DNA of 58,372 bases, from contig JAJZYD010000001.1 of assembly GCA_021806095.1 (NCBI GenBank), positions 1 to 58,372 on the forward strand, read 5' to 3'. The position numbers and the translations under genes were made by a program. Source of the stretch: Candidatus Micrarchaeota archaeon (GTDB lineage Archaea > Micrarchaeota > Micrarchaeia > Micrarchaeales > Micrarchaeaceae). This document shows, piece after piece, positions 1,065-43,314 of this stretch. Position 1 is the first letter of the stretch. Each line of letters starts with the position of its first letter. The notes below the pieces were generated by a model. That model made no database searches, was not told the origin of the DNA, and saw nothing but the letters and a program-made list of their open reading frames with translations.

Positions 1065-1716
1065 TTATAAAATCGAATGATGGTGGCACTCCAGAAATTA
1101 TTAAATGCCCCAAACTATTAATATCTACAGGAGGATGTTTTTTTATTTTATTGATTAATAATTTAAGCTTTTTAATTGTTGAAACATCTCTTTTTTTGAT
1201 TTGTGTAGTAAGATACCATATATCATATAAGTCATGTGCTTCTGGATGTTTAAAACTACCTTCGTTATCAAATTTATCATTATATGCTTCTATTTTCTCA
1301 TTTAATAGCTTGAGTGGATTTAATGATAAAATTATTATTTTACTTCCATCAACTTTCAAGTATTCTACTGGCGCACCTTTTTTATAATTAAAATTAATAT
1401 TTATTTTCATTTTAGTCTCAGCAATTTCAACCAAGAAATGCATAGTATTTGTAGAATTACTGTATCCTTTCTCTTTTATTACAAATCCATAATCTTGCAA
1501 AAACTTTGCAATTTCTTTATAATATTTCATTTTTTCTGTAATGTTTTTTGCATCTAAATAAAAATCAAGATCTCTAGAAAATCTGTTTCCAGAATAACAC
1601 CTCCATATTGCAGTTCCACCGTGCAATACAAGATGTATATATTTACCATACAAAAGTTCTATTATTGTATCCTCAAGCTTTGCTTTTTCAAGTTGTCCAG
1701 GATTTTTAAGGTTCAT
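1024..1716 (-). CDS. AbiEii/AbiGii-family nucleotidyltransferase toxin (DUF1814)
   Basis: LHGGTAIWRCYSGNRFSRDLDFY matches the GGTAL...R.S.DLDF signature of AbiEii nucleotidyltransferases. About 230 aa, paired with an AbiEi-like gene. Confidence 0.7.
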   Translation of the reverse strand: MNLKNPGQLEKAKLEDTIIELLYGKYIHLVLHGGTAIWRCYSGNRFSRDLDFYLDAKNITEKMKYYKEIAKFLQDYGFVIKEKGYSNSTNTMHFLVEIAETKMKININFNYKKGAPVEYLKVDGSKIIILSLNPLKLLNEKIEAYNDKFDNEGSFKHPEAHDLYDIWYLTTQIKKRDVSTIKKLKLLINKIKKHPPVDINSLGHLIISGVPPSFDFIIDKLKKWVNDNNQ

Positions 1717-1901
1717 TAAATAACCACAATTTATTACATATTTATGTAATAATATGCACTTATATATTTAGAAGCATTGTGGTTAAAAGTTAGAAAATTA
1801 TTGAAATGATTTTTTCTTAGGAGAAAGCCAAAACCATCATTTATATATTTTTAAGCTGTGTATAATTTATTATATATTTTATTGTTTCGCATTAATATAT
1901 T

Positions 1902-2816
1902 ATGCATAGTGATTCCATGGAAAATTATAATTTAGATAATCATAATAAGGATTATATTGAAATTATGGATAAATTTTATGGAATGATCTCAAAAAGCATC
2001 GCTATAAAGATTATGAAAGGAGAACTATTAATACAGCAAGACAATAAATTAGATAACCAAAAAGATAATGCAAATTCTAATAAAATTAATAAAATAGCAT
2101 TGGATGACACAACAGATGTTAAAAGTATAATAGAATTTATAAATACAAAAAGAAGCAAAATACTGAGTGGCTTTGATAATAAAGAAAATATGCAAAATGA
2201 AGAATCATATATTGTAAATGTTGAAGATGAAGTTTATAGAATATTCAATGCTGCTCCTACAAAAAATAGCAAAATAATAAGGAGGACAATAGTGCTAGGG
2301 CATGAAGGCAGCTCAATAAATCTAATAGTCCATAATAAGTTATCTGATTTTGTTGATGTTAATAGTATTGAAAGAGGTGATACCATATTAGTAAAAGGAG
2401 CTAAGCTCGACATCAAGCAGTCAATGCTGTTTGATCAAAAAAATACGTTGATATTAAAATTATTGCCATCGAAGCAGAAGATATACAATATAACGGAGCT
2501 GAATGAAAACATGAGAAATATTGATGTCATAGGCAGAGTTACAGAAATAAGCCCCATAAAATATGTAAATGGATTGGGGAATGATCAGATTGCAGTTGCA
2601 AACTGCATCATTAGCTTGAATAAAGAATCTATAAATGTATCATTGTGGGGCTCTTCTGCGCTTGCAACAGCAAAAATGAATCTGAACAATTACATAAAAA
2701 TAGAATTCTGTAATGTAAGGAAAAGGGCAGACAAGCTTGAAATAATAGCAAATGACTATTCAAGAGTATTAATAAACAATACTATAATTCAAAAAGTAAA
2801 AAAGATGGAGCGATGA
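1902..2816 (+). CDS. OB-fold protein, possible RPA-like ssDNA-binding protein
   Basis: Two segments follow the RPA/OB pattern (IIRRTIVLGHEGSSINLIVHN...GDTILVKGAKL and VIGRVTEISPIKYV...VANCIISLNKESINVSLWG). Low-complexity N-terminus. Translationally coupled (ATGA) to the next gene. Confidence 0.4.
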   Translation: MHSDSMENYNLDNHNKDYIEIMDKFYGMISKSIAIKIMKGELLIQQDNKLDNQKDNANSNKINKIALDDTTDVKSIIEFINTKRSKILSGFDNKENMQNEESYIVNVEDEVYRIFNAAPTKNSKIIRRTIVLGHEGSSINLIVHNKLSDFVDVNSIERGDTILVKGAKLDIKQSMLFDQKNTLILKLLPSKQKIYNITELNENMRNIDVIGRVTEISPIKYVNGLGNDQIAVANCIISLNKESINVSLWGSSALATAKMNLNNYIKIEFCNVRKRADKLEIIANDYSRVLINNTIIQKVKKMER

Positions 2817-7885: not shown

Positions 7886-7925
7886 CAACAATTTAAGATA
7901 AAAGAAAAAGAAAGAAGTAACATAC

Positions 7926-7997
7926 GCCTTGGCCGGGATTCGAACCCGGGTCACAAGCGTGACAGGCTCGTATGCTAGACCACTACACTACCAAGGC
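7926..7997 (-). tRNA. tRNA-Asp (anticodon GUC)
   Basis: The reverse complement GCCTTGG-TA-GTGT-AGTGGTCTA-GCAT-A-CGAGC-CTGTCAC-GCTTG-TGAC-CCGGG-TTCGAAT-CCCGG-CCAAGGC folds as a canonical cloverleaf. Anticodon loop is CU-GUC-AC. No encoded CCA. Confidence 0.92.
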
Positions 7998-8063
7998 ACG
8001 TTTATTTTTTCTTCTTCTTTTTCTTATTATTCTATTTCTTATTATTTTTATGTCTTTCGAAAT

Positions 8064-8164
8064 CCCGTTGGGGAGATTTGAACTCCCAGCCTATCGGTAT
8101 CCAACATGTTGTACATGCTGCAAACAAACTACAGCCGATCGCTCTGCCATTGAGCTACAACGGG
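8064..8164 (-). tRNA. tRNA-Tyr (anticodon GUA) with an approximately 30-nt intron after position 37
   Basis: Reverse complement: CCCGTTG-TA-GCTC-AATGGCA-GAGC-G-ATCGG-CTGTAG[tttgtttgcagcatgtacaacatgttggat]A-CCGAT-AGGCT-GGGAG-TTCAAAT-CTCCC-CAACGGG. All four stems pair. The mature length is 71 nt once the 30 nt are removed. Confidence 0.88.
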
Positions 8165-36678: not shown

Positions 36679-37902
36679 TTGGTAAATCAGATGCAAAATA
36701 TAACAAGTGCAAAACAAACACCGCAGGAAAAGATTAAATCATTAATAGGTGGACTAACAAATAAAGAAAAAAATATTATTTTGTTTGCTTTTCTTATGTT
36801 AGTAATTATTGCTATTTTTTATTATATAAGCACTCTTAATAGTTCAACAACAGTGGTTATTAGGAGCAGTGTAGCAGCTAAGTGTGGATATTCATCAAAT
36901 TATTCTAAATGTATTGAAACTATTGCTATACAATCAGATAATACAACTACTTGCAATAGCACTTTAGCAGGTAATACAAAAATCAACTGTATCTATAATG
37001 TAGCATTAAAAAACAACAATATCACACAATGCAATGAACTAAATTCCAGTTATAATTATTCAATTAATTGCAAATTAGCAGTTATAAACAAAACAAAAAA
37101 TTATAGTGCATGTAGTTCTATACAACAACCTTATAGTAGTTTTTGTTTATATGCAGCTTCAAAGTCCGAAAATTTCTCAAATTTAAGTGCGTGTTCAAAA
37201 ATACAAAATAAAACAGATGCAATTACATGCAATAATTTATATTATCTTAATCTTGCTATAAAAAATAAATCTGCAAATGATTGCTCTTATCTAAGTAATA
37301 CTACAAGTTTCTCTGATATATTAACTCTTATAAATTATAATTCATCATCAAATACATTGCAGCAAAATATAAACAATATTACCTCTACTTCTTACTTCAG
37401 TCAAATAAATTTCACTAATTATCAAATGTTTTTGAATTCGACTCCAAGAGATTATTGCTATTATAAGCTTGCTGAAATAGAAAATAATTCATCAACATGT
37501 AATTCTATAATATCAAATATTTATAGAAATGAATGTCTCTATAAATTAACACCACACCAGCCGCCACCATTAATTAATATAAATTATAATGCGTCAAATG
37601 CAACGCTAGCATGTAAAAATAATACAAATACCATAATTAAAAGTTGTTATATTCTGTATAATTTTCATAATGCAATTGAAAGTGAGAATGTTATTGGATG
37701 TAATATTTTTGGAAACTCAAGCGCAGGATCTATATGTGTTATGTCTATTGCTCTTAAAGAATTAAATACAAGCACATGCAATAGTGTATATAATACAACA
37801 TTACGTGGGATATGTTCTAATACTATAAATATATTAAAAATATATAGAATTCCCCAAAACATAACCAATACAACAAACTTTATTGCACCAAACATTACAT
37901 AA
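36679..37902 (+). CDS. Secreted Cys-rich, Asn-rich repeat protein
   Basis: N-terminal TM (IILFAFLMLVIIAIFYYI). At least 10 tandem ~23-25-aa units with paired Cys (C-x9-12-C-x3-hydrophobic-A). Very dense N-x-S/T. TTG start abuts the KaiC-like stop; an ATG at 36691 is the alternative start. Confidence 0.5.
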   Translation: MVNQMQNITSAKQTPQEKIKSLIGGLTNKEKNIILFAFLMLVIIAIFYYISTLNSSTTVVIRSSVAAKCGYSSNYSKCIETIAIQSDNTTTCNSTLAGNTKINCIYNVALKNNNITQCNELNSSYNYSINCKLAVINKTKNYSACSSIQQPYSSFCLYAASKSENFSNLSACSKIQNKTDAITCNNLYYLNLAIKNKSANDCSYLSNTTSFSDILTLINYNSSSNTLQQNINNITSTSYFSQINFTNYQMFLNSTPRDYCYYKLAEIENNSSTCNSIISNIYRNECLYKLTPHQPPPLININYNASNATLACKNNTNTIIKSCYILYNFHNAIESENVIGCNIFGNSSAGSICVMSIALKELNTSTCNSVYNTTLRGICSNTINILKIYRIPQNITNTTNFIAPNIT

Positions 37903-40691: not shown

Positions 40692-41057
40692 TTAATTATG
40701 TGAAGGCGATATTTGTTTGAGCTTCAACATATTCCTATATTTATTAACCAATGCAACTGCCTGCGACACAGCTTTAATAACATCTGCTCTTGTATGTGCT
40801 CCTGTACATATCACCTTGCCATTCTTGAAAAGAAGGAGTGCCGCCTTGGGTTCGTGTATTTTTAATATTGCCCCTGGAAATTGTTCTGGTTCATAATCAA
40901 TATCTGGGGATATTTTAGCAAGATTATAAAGGTCAAGATCAACTTTCATATCTGCGCTTGCAACAATATTTTCTACATGATATGTTGGTTTTAATACAAC
41001 ATGTTTATACTTTGTCTCTATTTTTTTTGCATTTTTTCTTTCCTTTTTTCTTACCAT
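40692..41057 (-). CDS. tbp: Single-repeat TATA-box-binding-protein-like protein (half-size TBP) with a basic N-terminal tail
   Basis: VENIVASADMKVDLDLYNLAKISPDIDYEPEQFPGAILKIHEPKAALLLFKNGKVICTGAHTRADVIKAV matches one complete TBP repeat (ENIVAS...YEPEQFPG...LLFxSGKxVCTGA). The ORF is only 121 aa, flanked by noncoding DNA and rfcL. Confidence 0.8.
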   Translation of the reverse strand: MVRKKERKNAKKIETKYKHVVLKPTYHVENIVASADMKVDLDLYNLAKISPDIDYEPEQFPGAILKIHEPKAALLLFKNGKVICTGAHTRADVIKAVSQAVALVNKYRNMLKLKQISPSHN

Positions 41058-41309: not shown

Positions 41310-43079
41310 TTATTTTAAAATTTTATTTATAAAAACAAATGAATCTTCTTCTTCCCCGATTTTTGTAAAATTATTTTTTGTCAATAAAGTTATTGAAGCA
41401 GTATTTTTCTTTTTTGATAATGCGTATACTTCTTTTATATTTATATCATTCATTTTTTTAATTATTTTGTTTAATAAGTCTGTTGCAATTCCTTTGCGCC
41501 TATATTCCTGTTTTATAGCAATACCCAATTCAAAGCGCTTTTTATTTTGATTCCATACAACGTTTGAAAAACCCACTACTACATTTATTGAATTATTTAT
41601 TGCTAAAAGAAAATATCCTTTTTTCATTTCCATATTTCTTATATTGTATCCAATCCATTTATCAATATCTATTATTTTATATAACTCCATTTGACTGTCT
41701 TCTTCTTTTTTAAGATCATTTATAAGTTTTTTAATGTGCTCTAAATAATCTAAATTTAAAGGTATTAATACAATTTTCTTAATCTCTTTATAATAATAAT
41801 ACTCTAGCAAATATCTTAATATTTCATTAATTACTGTACAAGAATATTTATCTATAAATCCTAATTTGCCTGTTTTTGTATATATATCATATGCACAACT
41901 TCCTCCACATAATCCAAGAGCAGGACAATTCCAGCATTCCTCATTATATAGAGGAATGCCCATTTTTATCCATTCATACATTAAAGGATTCTTGGTAGCT
42001 AAGAAACCGTTTGCTATTTTATCTTGATACAAATCTGCGGTAAAAAATGCTTGACATGGTCCAAGGGTTCCTTTTGGTGAAAATGCAATTTGCTGACCAT
42101 ACGCAGGACAGTCATAAAATTTAGGTATTTCATTAAATAAAGATTCTGCCCGTCTTCTTCCTATCCTATCCTCATATATATTTAATTCTTGAGCTCTTGT
42201 AAATCCCCTAAATAAATAATATGCAAGAATTTTAGGATCTTCAACTGCATAATCTTTATTTGTTGCATCAAGAATAATATTAAAACCAATTGCTTTAACA
42301 CCTAATTCATAAAAGAAATCAACTATTTTATCAAGAAAAAGATAATTGAATTTTGTTACTGTGCAAGATATTCCAGGTGATATTCCATTTTGTTTTAATA
42401 TAGACAGTGCTTTTATTACATCAAAAAAACTTTCATTGTTATTTTTATATACTCTATTTTTATTTAAATTTCCCCACCCATCTAAGGACAAACTGATACC
42501 AAAAGCATGTTCTTTAAAATATTTAGCTATTTCATCATTCATTAGACTTCCATTAGTTATTATACTAAATTTAAATTTGTCTTTATTGATTGCTTCAAAT
42601 TGTTCTACAAAATATTTTAAAATTTTAATGTTTAATAAAGGTTCACCCCCATAAAATATAATCTTATATTTATCAATATTTTTAGAATTATTCTTTATAA
42701 TCTTGATAATGTTGTCTGCTTGATTCTCATTCATAAAACTGCGTTTTGAAGAAAGTGCATTTTCAATATAACAATATTTACATCTAAAATTACATTCATC
42801 AGTTAATAAAATATAAGACATTGAAGGATTTGGTGCTTTAATTGTTTTAGTTTGAATTATTTTATTAATAGCTTCTTTTTTATTATAATTATCATTTACT
42901 ATAAACTTTAGTTTTTTTAGATTTTCTACGCTCTCATTATCTGCATTAGTTTGTATATCCTTAATCAATTGTTTATACTCAATATTGTTCATATATACTT
43001 TTTTTAATGAGAGAGAATGAAATAAACATATTTGATCCTTGCAACAATCAAATACATAAACAAATGGAGATATTTTCAA
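41310..43079 (-). CDS. Radical SAM / SPASM-domain peptide-modifying enzyme fused to a C-terminal GNAT N-acetyltransferase
   Basis: rSAM cluster CNFRCKYC. SPASM motifs C-x12-G-x4-C (CPAYGQQIAFSPKGTLGPC) and C-x2-C-x5-C-x3-C (CWNCPALGLCGGSC), plus a downstream Cys. GNAT motif A QEYRRKGIATDLL in the last ~150 aa. The N-terminal ~85 aa before the cluster could be an RRE. TTG start preceded by AAGTGA. Confidence 0.85.
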   Translation of the reverse strand: MKISPFVYVFDCCKDQICLFHSLSLKKVYMNNIEYKQLIKDIQTNADNESVENLKKLKFIVNDNYNKKEAINKIIQTKTIKAPNPSMSYILLTDECNFRCKYCYIENALSSKRSFMNENQADNIIKIIKNNSKNIDKYKIIFYGGEPLLNIKILKYFVEQFEAINKDKFKFSIITNGSLMNDEIAKYFKEHAFGISLSLDGWGNLNKNRVYKNNNESFFDVIKALSILKQNGISPGISCTVTKFNYLFLDKIVDFFYELGVKAIGFNIILDATNKDYAVEDPKILAYYLFRGFTRAQELNIYEDRIGRRRAESLFNEIPKFYDCPAYGQQIAFSPKGTLGPCQAFFTADLYQDKIANGFLATKNPLMYEWIKMGIPLYNEECWNCPALGLCGGSCAYDIYTKTGKLGFIDKYSCTVINEILRYLLEYYYYKEIKKIVLIPLNLDYLEHIKKLINDLKKEEDSQMELYKIIDIDKWIGYNIRNMEMKKGYFLLAINNSINVVVGFSNVVWNQNKKRFELGIAIKQEYRRKGIATDLLNKIIKKMNDINIKEVYALSKKKNTASITLLTKNNFTKIGEEEDSFVFINKILK

Positions 43080-43104: not shown

Positions 43105-43275
43105 TTATAGTAATTCTATTATTTTTATATTATTGTCTTGTGGGCCACTGCATATACAATCGCAATCATTTCCGTCACAATCGCCTCCACCACAATAACC
43201 ATAATCGCATTCACTACATACATTCGATTCTATATCTTTTTGATTATATAGTAATATAGGTTTTGATATTTTCAT
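43105..43275 (-). CDS. Cys/Asp-rich 56-aa peptide, candidate precursor/substrate of the adjacent rSAM-SPASM enzyme (not in the ORF track)
   Basis: Own translation: MKISKPILLYNQKDIESNVCSECDYGYCGGGDCDGNDCDCICSGPQDNNIKIIELL*. AGTGGT SD-like motif 3 nt upstream of the ATG. Same strand as, and 25 nt upstream of, the rSAM gene. G+C-rich island in an AT-rich spacer. Confidence 0.65.
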   Translation of the reverse strand: MKISKPILLYNQKDIESNVCSECDYGYCGGGDCDGNDCDCICSGPQDNNIKIIELL

Positions 43276-43304: not shown

Positions 43305-43314
43305 CTTTAAATAT
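43305..43314 (-). promoter_or_regulatory. TATA-like box for the peptide/rSAM operon
   Basis: The minus strand reads atatttaaag about 30-40 nt upstream of the peptide ATG. No other gene starts in this spacer. Confidence 0.3.

Follow-up and report, generated by a model that had tools for sequence, protein, structure and literature searches.

A radical SAM/SPASM-GNAT fusion protein paired with a Cys/Asp-rich peptide gene in a Micrarchaeota genome

Introduction

Radical S-adenosylmethionine (SAM)/SPASM maturases are well known in bacteria, while the ribosomally synthesised peptides with post-translational modifications (RiPPs) of archaea have barely been explored, above all those of the genome-reduced DPANN lineages. 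Several described systems bear on the locus analysed here, which lies in a 58,372-nt stretch from a Candidatus Micrarchaeota archaeon (assembly GCA_021806095.1, contig JAJZYD010000001.1, positions 1 to 58,372; hereafter the window) and consists of a gene for a radical SAM/SPASM enzyme with a C-terminal GCN5-related N-acetyltransferase (GNAT) domain and, immediately upstream, a gene for a small Cys/Asp-rich peptide. QhpD joins Cys to Asp/Glu side chains by thioether bonds. The FibroRumin maturase has, to our knowledge, a product that is still uncharacterised. In some RiPP pathways, stand-alone GNATs such as MdnD/MvdB (microviridin) and GodH (goadsporin) N-acetylate a ribosomal peptide with acetyl-CoA as a tailoring step. 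Among radical SAM-GNAT fusions Elp3 is, as far as we know, the only one to have been characterised; it uses acetyl-CoA in its radical step. PapB links Cys to Asp/Glu by a thioether in Cys-X3-Asp/Glu motifs, spacings of n=0-6 being tolerated (PMC9413430), and TigE is a cyclopropylglycine synthase (PMC10878394).

The enzyme encoded in the window resembles maturases that combine a RiPP recognition element (RRE) with radical SAM and SPASM domains, namely CteB and PapB, as well as the SPASM enzyme QhpD, and it extends their known logic. A rigid fusion of a GNAT to a SPASM maturase, together with the precursor family described below, was found neither in NCBIfam nor in the literature searched, and is new in that sense.

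Results

Architecture of the enzyme

The fused gene occupies 41310..43079 (-) and starts with a TTG codon 25 nt past the stop codon of the peptide gene, yielding a protein of 589 aa. Public gene callers picked Met30 as the start, giving a 560-aa protein (P0001; P and L numbers label the proteins and loci compared). The N-terminus of the longer form, MKISPFVY, matches residue by residue those of two ATG-started homologs, P0002 (MKFSPFVY) and P0003 (MRFSKFVF). As residues 1-29 (MKISPFVYVFDCCKDQICLFHSLSLKKVY) can be aligned with these homologs and hold invariant positions, the TTG start and the 589-aa form are correct.

An earlier note, made from the sequence alone, had divided this open reading frame (ORF) into a part of ~85 aa compatible with a PqqD-like RRE, a radical SAM core with the motif CNFRCKYC, a complete seven-Cys SPASM signature and a GNAT domain with its motif A. 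The last three parts are borne out by profile searches. The motif CNFRCKYC lies at 42771..42794 (-) (residues 96-103, with C96, C100 and C103), within a Pfam match to Radical_SAM (PF04055, residues 91-239, 75.2 bits for a cutoff of 29.5). The SPASM auxiliary-cluster domain (41838..42110 (-), residues 324-414) has precisely the seven-Cys layout claimed, C324-x12-G337-x4-C342, C382-x2-C385-x5-C391-x3-C395 and then C414. The NCBIfam SPASM model TIGR04085 covers it from position 1 to 93 of 93 (42.8 bits for a cutoff of 27), although its Pfam counterpart PF13186 is silent on the maturase even at E<=10. Across an alignment of 60 homologs, the seven SPASM Cys never vary, and nor do the three Cys of the radical SAM motif. 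The GNAT acyltransferase domain (41313..41780 (-), residues 434-589) comes directly after the SPASM helix, and three GNAT models score above cutoff at residues 468-572 (PF13302, 44.3 bits for 25.4; PF00583, 42.3 for 20.7; PF13508, 29.1). Its motif A, the acetyl-CoA pyrophosphate-binding loop QEYRRKGIATDLL (41472..41510 (-), residues 524-536), reads R527-R-K-G-I-A532 and fits the pattern [RQ]-x-x-G-x-[GA] (R527-x-x-G530-x-A532).

An AlphaFold2 model of the maturase was built on the 60-sequence alignment (mean pLDDT 91.9, pTM 0.82, no segment below 50). It bears on the N-terminal module (42825..43079 (-), residues 1-85), for which the earlier proposal stood in part. The fold is predicted to be a winged helix of beta-beta-beta-alpha-alpha-alpha type (strands 7-13, 16-21 and 27-31; helices 32-43, 49-56 and 67-78) and aligns with CteB, and its strands (SPFVY..CLFHSLSLKKVY) are kept among homologs. 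The PqqD profile PF05402, by contrast, has no match in the maturase even at E<=10, and NCBIfam gives residues 1-85 a marginal match only. We therefore call the module RRE-like, a designation taken from its predicted fold. The 589-aa ORF is confirmed as a single chain of RRE-like, radical SAM, SPASM and GNAT modules, and a chance origin is excluded because the E-values range from 1e-10 to 1e-51 and the arrangement recurs in independent samples.

In the same model, the SPASM helix 411-433 leads into GNAT strand 436-440 with two residues between them, so that the fusion would be rigid, with no tether. A Foldseek search against the PDB places CteB first (5WGG, E 1e-20, TMt 0.76 over 457 columns), and further matches to the first 430 residues are TigE (8VPO), anSME, ChlB and SuiB, while those to the C-terminus are ordinary GNATs (3d8p, 2i79 and 4j3g, TMt ~0.76-0.77). 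The solved proteins closest in sequence are TigE (9e-24) and CteB (1e-21), and the nearest solved GNAT relatives are Sulfolobus Ard1/SSO0209 entries, whose matches (E ~3e-8) span only 75 residues.

Relationship to described systems

NCBIfam alignments run over the full length of models for peptide maturases (FibroRumin, PapB, QhpD, HxsB, CefB, nif11, AmcB and SCIFF), and the enzyme reaches none of the curated equivalog cutoffs tested. The best-scoring curated family is the FibroRumin maturase (TIGR04136, residues 6-414, 8e-51), but the score of 173.3 bits stands against a cutoff of 400, and this family lacks a GNAT and occurs in other organisms. PapB, which acts on PapA in the freyrasin system, has an RRE and a radical SAM/SPASM core comparable to the modules of our enzyme, and its model (NF047865) aligns to residues 90-405 (1e-48). 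Its substrate is rich in Cys and Asp, with C-x3-D motifs; three such motifs occur in the window peptide, and the spacing varies among the homologs of that peptide. However, the score of 166.2 bits for a cutoff of 340 shows that the enzyme is no PapB equivalog. PapB has no GNAT domain and is bacterial, whereas this enzyme is archaeal, and PapA has six regular C-x3-D motifs where the present peptide, unrelated in sequence, has irregular CDC repeats. QhpD is the third-best family match (1e-34) and also a radical SAM/SPASM enzyme, but its model gives 120 bits where 453 are required, it acts on a subunit of an enzyme and not on a small separate peptide, and it lacks a GNAT. CteB, the SCIFF maturase, has the same layout of RRE, radical SAM and SPASM domains, and its SPASM domain has seven Cys that line up with those of the window enzyme. 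Yet the two are only 21% identical, CteB has no GNAT, the SCIFF maturase model (TIGR03974) gives 104.1 bits for a cutoff of 425, and the precursor described here is not a SCIFF peptide. For the C-terminus alone, the best NCBIfam model is RimI (2.4e-8), again below its cutoff (34.2 bits for 86.4). FibroRumin, PapB, QhpD, CefB, SCIFF and RimI identities were all rejected on these grounds.

Elp3 has the same order of domains, with a radical SAM domain joined to a C-terminal GNAT, but it has neither SPASM domain nor RRE and acts on tRNA. Pfam finds no Radical_SAM_C domain in the window enzyme, and the Foldseek comparison with human Elp3 (8ptx_C) gives a TM of 0.27-0.29 and a root-mean-square deviation of 21.9. 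Membership of the Elp3 family was consequently rejected, in agreement with the distinction drawn by the earlier note. The stand-alone RiPP GNATs differ in another respect, being separate proteins in multi-gene clusters, whereas here the GNAT is fused, rigidly according to the model, to the primary maturase. The literature searched contains no description of a radical SAM/SPASM-GNAT fusion or of comparable RiPPs from DPANN or other archaea. Along with the absence of any curated family whose cutoff is reached, this upholds the view that the architecture lies outside described families.

The paired precursor peptide

The peptide gene (43105..43275 (-), 56 aa) adjoins the maturase gene on its upstream side with a 25-nt gap. 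The encoded peptide, MKISKPILLYNQKDIESNVCSECDYGYCGGGDCDGNDCDCICSGPQDNNIKIIELL, can be divided into a leader (MKISKPILLYNQKDIESNV), a predicted core (CSECDYGYCGGGDCDGNDCDCICSGPQD; 43135..43218 (-), residues 20-47, containing seven Cys and as many Asp/Glu) and the tail NNIKIIELL. Three C-x3-D motifs are present in the core (CSECD, CGGGD and CDGND), which ends with C-x-G-P-x-D. A putative archaeal TATA box, TATTTAAA (43306..43313 (-)), read from the sequence only, ends 31 nt before the ATG of the peptide gene; an operon of precursor and then maturase would be transcribed from it.

Neither Pfam nor NCBIfam has a match for the peptide. A homologous gene for a peptide of 47-59 aa lies directly upstream, on the same strand, in all seven of the fused loci that have upstream DNA (L001, 87..245; L002, 260..436; L003, 437..616; L005, 1066..1242; L090, 6001..6165; L091, 3095..3265; L093, 4842..4985). 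A profile search of 5.8e9 proteins with these precursors gave four matches only, and all those whose contig was read adjoin this maturase. In the leader, the homologs have just one conserved stretch, M-x-[IV]-S-x-P...Y at the extreme N-terminus, and their cores have the common form C-x2-C-[DE]-[YW]-x2-C-G-G ... D-C-D-C-x-C-x-G-P-x-D.

Cys, Asp/Glu and Lys were counted in the cores of the precursors from seven fused loci, from L095 (unfused enzyme) and from L008 (degenerate GNAT). Numbers of Cys and of acidic residues are close to each other in the window (7 and 7), L001 (9 and 8), L002 (11 and 11), L090 (9 and 8), L003 (7 and 7) and L093 (6 and 7), L005 being an outlier (9 and 5). Such near-equality would fit one thioether per Cys/acidic pair. 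No conserved Lys was found in the cores.

The genes flanking the pair are housekeeping genes that vary by locus (RFC, TATA-binding protein (TBP), carbamoyltransferase, S8e and LigT in the window; Cdc48, LigT and a kinase-like gene at L090; UbiA and PIN at L005), so that the peptide-enzyme pair alone is conserved. The functional unit is this two-gene pair, and the conserved Cys/Asp-rich precursor gene directly upstream is the strongest element of context.

Two further observations concern the peptide. The N-terminus of the enzyme, MKISPFVYVF (43050..43079 (-)), resembles that of the leader, MKISKPILLY (43246..43275 (-)), and the two are similar at other loci as well. This may be due to chance or to strand mimicry at the RRE. 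In addition, the precursor copy found in two samples (P0273; L091 and L092) differs from that of the window solely by D34G (43174..43176 (-)), which deletes one acidic residue in the third C-x3-D region.

Occurrence of the fusion

Nine full-length fused proteins, 27-58% identical to the window enzyme, and one more with a degenerate GNAT were detected. A word-indexed search of 5.8 billion proteins returned four of the fused homologs (P0002, 58% identity; P0003, 51%; P0004, 50%; P0039, 32%), together with ~30 unfused homologs at ~45% identity. With the GNAT part alone as the query, this type of search yielded only two proteins and failed to recover known members. In an exhaustive phmmer search of 1.84 billion representatives clustered at 50% identity, the last 165 residues matched 166 proteins at E<=1e-3. 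A few of them (P0002, P0127, P0133, P0155 and P0215) have the GNAT at ~425-590 of a ~580-aa protein, and in each the combination of Radical_SAM and GNAT was verified by Pfam. Four short entries (P0123-P0126) begin within or just past the SPASM helix and are fragments or derivatives. A metagenome scan with the GNAT alignment gave at least two loci.

The degenerate case, P0035, is a 592-aa ORF in L008 (5896..7674), which public annotation truncates by 35 residues. Its GNAT-like C-terminus lacks motif A, as YEGK-VAE replaces R-x-x-G-x-G/A, and the peptide upstream of it differs (…MKICTNTCACASCWPYKSEYKKRE). The closest named relative, 72% identical, is a fused gene in a Micrarchaeia metagenome-assembled genome (GCA_049967615.1; L009, 1236..2631), split by a frameshift in the SPASM region into two overlapping ORFs (1476..1970 and 1828..2631). 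This copy is either a pseudogene or the product of an assembly error, and its 3' part is labelled by NCBI as a stand-alone 'GNAT family N-acetyltransferase'. A second sample contains a copy of the window gene that is 99% identical, with an unchanged reading frame. The window and L091 show no difference in the GNAT and 16 in the radical SAM/SPASM part, numbers too small for an estimate of dN/dS, the ratio of nonsynonymous to synonymous substitution rates.

None of the matches listed for GTDB species representatives is fused or closely related; the best of them is 30% identical and ends at residue 425-454. Viral contigs of IMG/VR likewise provide no close or fused relative (the best match is 26% identical and unfused), and fused proteins were seen only in archaeal-looking contexts. 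An assembly chimera or frameshift artefact was considered and rejected, full-length fusions being present in independent NCBI, JGI, ENA and Logan assemblies. This recurrence, along with the direct passage from SPASM helix to GNAT strand in the model, establishes that the fusion reported in the earlier note is genuine. The SPASM-GNAT architecture is real, recurrent, rare and cellular, and the host of the two-gene cassette is a low-GC, DPANN-like archaeon.

The GNAT domain is an accessory

In a neighbour-joining tree of the first ~430 residues, which is rough and carries no support values, the fused proteins form a grade (P0035, P0127, P0155, P0215, P0133, P0004, P0003, P0002 and the window enzyme), with an unfused clade (P0005-P0033) nested inside it and P0039 placed elsewhere. 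This topology suggests a single fusion followed by loss. The unfused enzyme at L095 has an upstream peptide clearly related to the precursors of the fused loci (MKMWISIPSELLLHSDC...CGACACMDCQDCGP). As this peptide is served by an unfused enzyme and the nested clade has lost the GNAT, the domain is an accessory that stands outside the radical chemistry. These facts argue against a mechanism of the Elp3 type and leave room for an independent function of the GNAT.

A further case comes from L098 (5123..5654, compared with L090 5860..7437). Over 5.1 kb this locus shares 97% identity with L090, but the ~1.6 kb of L090 5860..7437 are absent from it. The deletion takes away the precursor gene together with some 400 codons from the start of the maturase gene, its junction sharing ~14 bases. 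What is left is a stand-alone GNAT ORF of 170 aa with its own start, beginning at the former end of the SPASM helix.

Within the fused proteins, motif A is well conserved: all nine full-length fused homologs retain the pattern [RQ]-x-x-G-x-[GA], and P0035 alone has lost it. Motif A and an N-x-x-S motif are conserved in 9 of the 10 fused proteins despite low overall identity. By sequence, the closest relatives of the domain are N-alpha-acetyltransferases (Ard1/SSO0209, 3e-8; RimI, 2e-8).

Among the relatives without a GNAT, the larger unfused clade has a different type of substrate gene, with long precursors located downstream that carry CP(T/Q)P(A/L)C(W/S)SCG repeats and with extra radical SAM genes. 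At L006 (7661..8242) and L007 (7616..8041), which belong to this unfused sister clade (~45% identical), the downstream precursors are 141-193 aa long with tandem repeats, and additional radical SAM or B12-radical SAM genes lie beside them on large archaeal contigs. These repeats look like a different, apparently undescribed family of Cys-rich RiPPs. A further unusual fusion among these enzymes is P0112 (640 aa), a related radical SAM maturase that carries a HAD hydrolase domain (PF13419/PF00702).

Discussion

Proposed function

The reading that we prefer, and hold with about even confidence, is that the two genes form a minimal RiPP cassette: a single enzyme would recognise the leader, place Cys-linked thioethers in the Cys/Asp-rich core and also acylate an amine of this peptide. 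The RRE-like module would bind the M-x-[IV]-S-x-P...Y motif at the extreme N-terminus of the leader. The radical SAM/SPASM part would then cleave SAM and abstract a hydrogen from C-beta of Asp or C-gamma of Glu (or, alternatively, from C-alpha), and the activated carbon would be joined to a Cys sulfur held at the auxiliary cluster. Repeated over successive Cys/acidic pairs, this reaction could yield a compact, multiply thioether-bridged product of the ranthipeptide type, as with PapB and QhpD. Finally, the rigidly attached GNAT would acylate an amine of the tethered peptide with acetyl-CoA or another acyl-CoA. As the cores have no conserved Lys, the likeliest acceptor, if the GNAT acts on the peptide, would be an alpha-amine, and this could be the precursor's own N-terminus, where the one conserved leader motif lies, or the new N-terminus exposed once the leader is removed. 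The domain architecture, the conserved catalytic motifs, the strict pairing of peptide and enzyme and the accessory status of the GNAT are established by the comparisons above, whereas the type of bond, the acyl acceptor and the biological role of the product are inferred. The parts of this scheme differ in strength. That the enzyme is the maturase of the adjacent peptide is very likely and thioether formation is likely, while linkage to Asp/Glu side chains and N-alpha-acetylation are plausible.

Several findings weigh against the scheme. As regards the thioethers, the chemistry is not transferable by homology, since no curated equivalog cutoff is reached, and the closest solved relative by sequence, TigE, forms cyclopropylglycine and no thioethers. 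The spacing between Cys and acidic residues differs among precursor homologs, and their near-equal numbers arise partly from CD-dipeptide repeats. As regards the GNAT, the related precursor of L095 and the nested clade are paired with unfused enzymes, no GNAT gene lies near these relatives, and at L098 the domain survives alone after deletion of the precursor and of the rest of the maturase. An extended beta6-beta7 hairpin is typical of N-terminal acetyltransferases, and none is obvious in the AlphaFold2 model (strands 572-577 and 580-586). Finally, no protease or exporter gene lies near the cassette, and none for a protease or transporter is conserved among the loci compared, so that neither leader removal nor a purpose for N-terminal capping is evident.

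Alternative explanations

The strongest competitor, though an unlikely one, leaves the radical part to mature the peptide and has the GNAT act elsewhere, as a general N-alpha- or small-molecule acetyltransferase that became fused in a reduced genome. Housekeeping, self-protection and regulation by acetyl-CoA are the roles offered for such a domain. Its nearest relatives, Ard1 and RimI, are indeed general enzymes, the unfused relatives do without a GNAT gene nearby, and the clean 1.6-kb deletion at L098 spared an intact GNAT ORF with a start of its own. However, the L098 remnant may be a recent relic, and the fusion has been kept among enzymes only ~27-58% identical to that of the window, always with the same peptide family, while an accident would be unlikely to last. 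The rigid junction predicted by the model, with no loose linker, also speaks against a passenger domain.

Slightly less probable again is that the cassette works as proposed but with another radical modification, such as C-alpha thioethers (sactipeptide type), C-C crosslinks, cyclopropanation or epimerisation. The top structure and sequence matches do include CteB, which forms C-alpha thioethers, and TigE, which forms cyclopropylglycine, and every equivalog score is far under its cutoff. What favours Cys-to-Asp/Glu linkage over these reactions is the composition of the core, where Cys and Asp predominate in similar numbers and the Val/Ile-rich motifs of TigE-type targets are missing, as well as the presence of PapB and QhpD among the three best family matches.

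That the GNAT is catalytically silent and serves as a second peptide-docking or oligomerisation scaffold seems improbable. P0035 retains a GNAT-like C-terminus without motif A, which would be compatible with such a role. A Tyr acts as general acid in many GNATs, and at the position that we equate with it by our own reading of the motifs the present domains carry Leu or Phe. Conservation of motif A and of N-x-x-S in all fused proteins but one, and Pfam GNAT scores above cutoff, nonetheless speak against it.

More speculatively, and with a probability that we put a shade lower, the GNAT could be something other than a simple N-acetylating domain and, as in Elp3, furnish acetyl-CoA (or another acyl-CoA) as a co-substrate of the radical reaction, so that a peptide bridged by thioethers would come to bear an acetyl or carboxymethyl group linked through carbon; in broader terms, the cassette might represent a new class of acylated, Cys/Asp-crosslinked peptides specific to DPANN-type archaea, with a symbiotic role, for example in metal binding or host interaction. 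Least probable of all is a truly Elp3-like reaction, in which the 5'-deoxyadenosyl radical converts GNAT-held acetyl-CoA into an acetyl radical for C-C addition (carboxymethylation) to the peptide: the radical SAM domain does precede the GNAT in both enzymes, but the structural disparity with 8ptx_C, the whole SPASM domain that separates the radical SAM core from the GNAT and the lack of Radical_SAM_C speak against it, and since close unfused homologs and P0035, with its degenerate motif A, keep Cys-rich peptide partners, the radical chemistry is independent of the GNAT.

Other features of the window

Three features outside the cassette deserve mention. Directly downstream of the maturase gene, 40692..41057 (-) encodes a 121-aa TBP with a single repeat (PF00352, residues 26-107, E 2e-25), in contrast to the two repeats of canonical archaeal TBPs. 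Beside tRNA-Asp (7924..7998), a 102-nt Rfam tRNA match at 8063..8164 (-) (60.7 bits), which ARAGORN does not report, is probably an intron-containing tRNA. Finally, the 407-aa ORF at 36679..37902 (+) has a high content of Cys and Asn and numerous N-x-S/T sequons, lacks any match in Pfam and possibly encodes a secreted or surface glycoprotein.

Significance

With two genes only, a 56-aa peptide and one chain, predicted to be rigid, that apparently carries recognition, radical crosslinking and acyl transfer, the cassette should be easy to express and could reveal the physical coupling of a tailoring enzyme to a primary maturase. It defines a new precursor family, with an M-x-I-S-x-P leader and a CDC-rich core, and, as the GNAT was apparently both fused and later lost, the family offers a natural comparison between enzymes with and without the domain. 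The enzyme is also a possible compact bifunctional catalyst for the peptide-engineering toolbox that PapB has opened.

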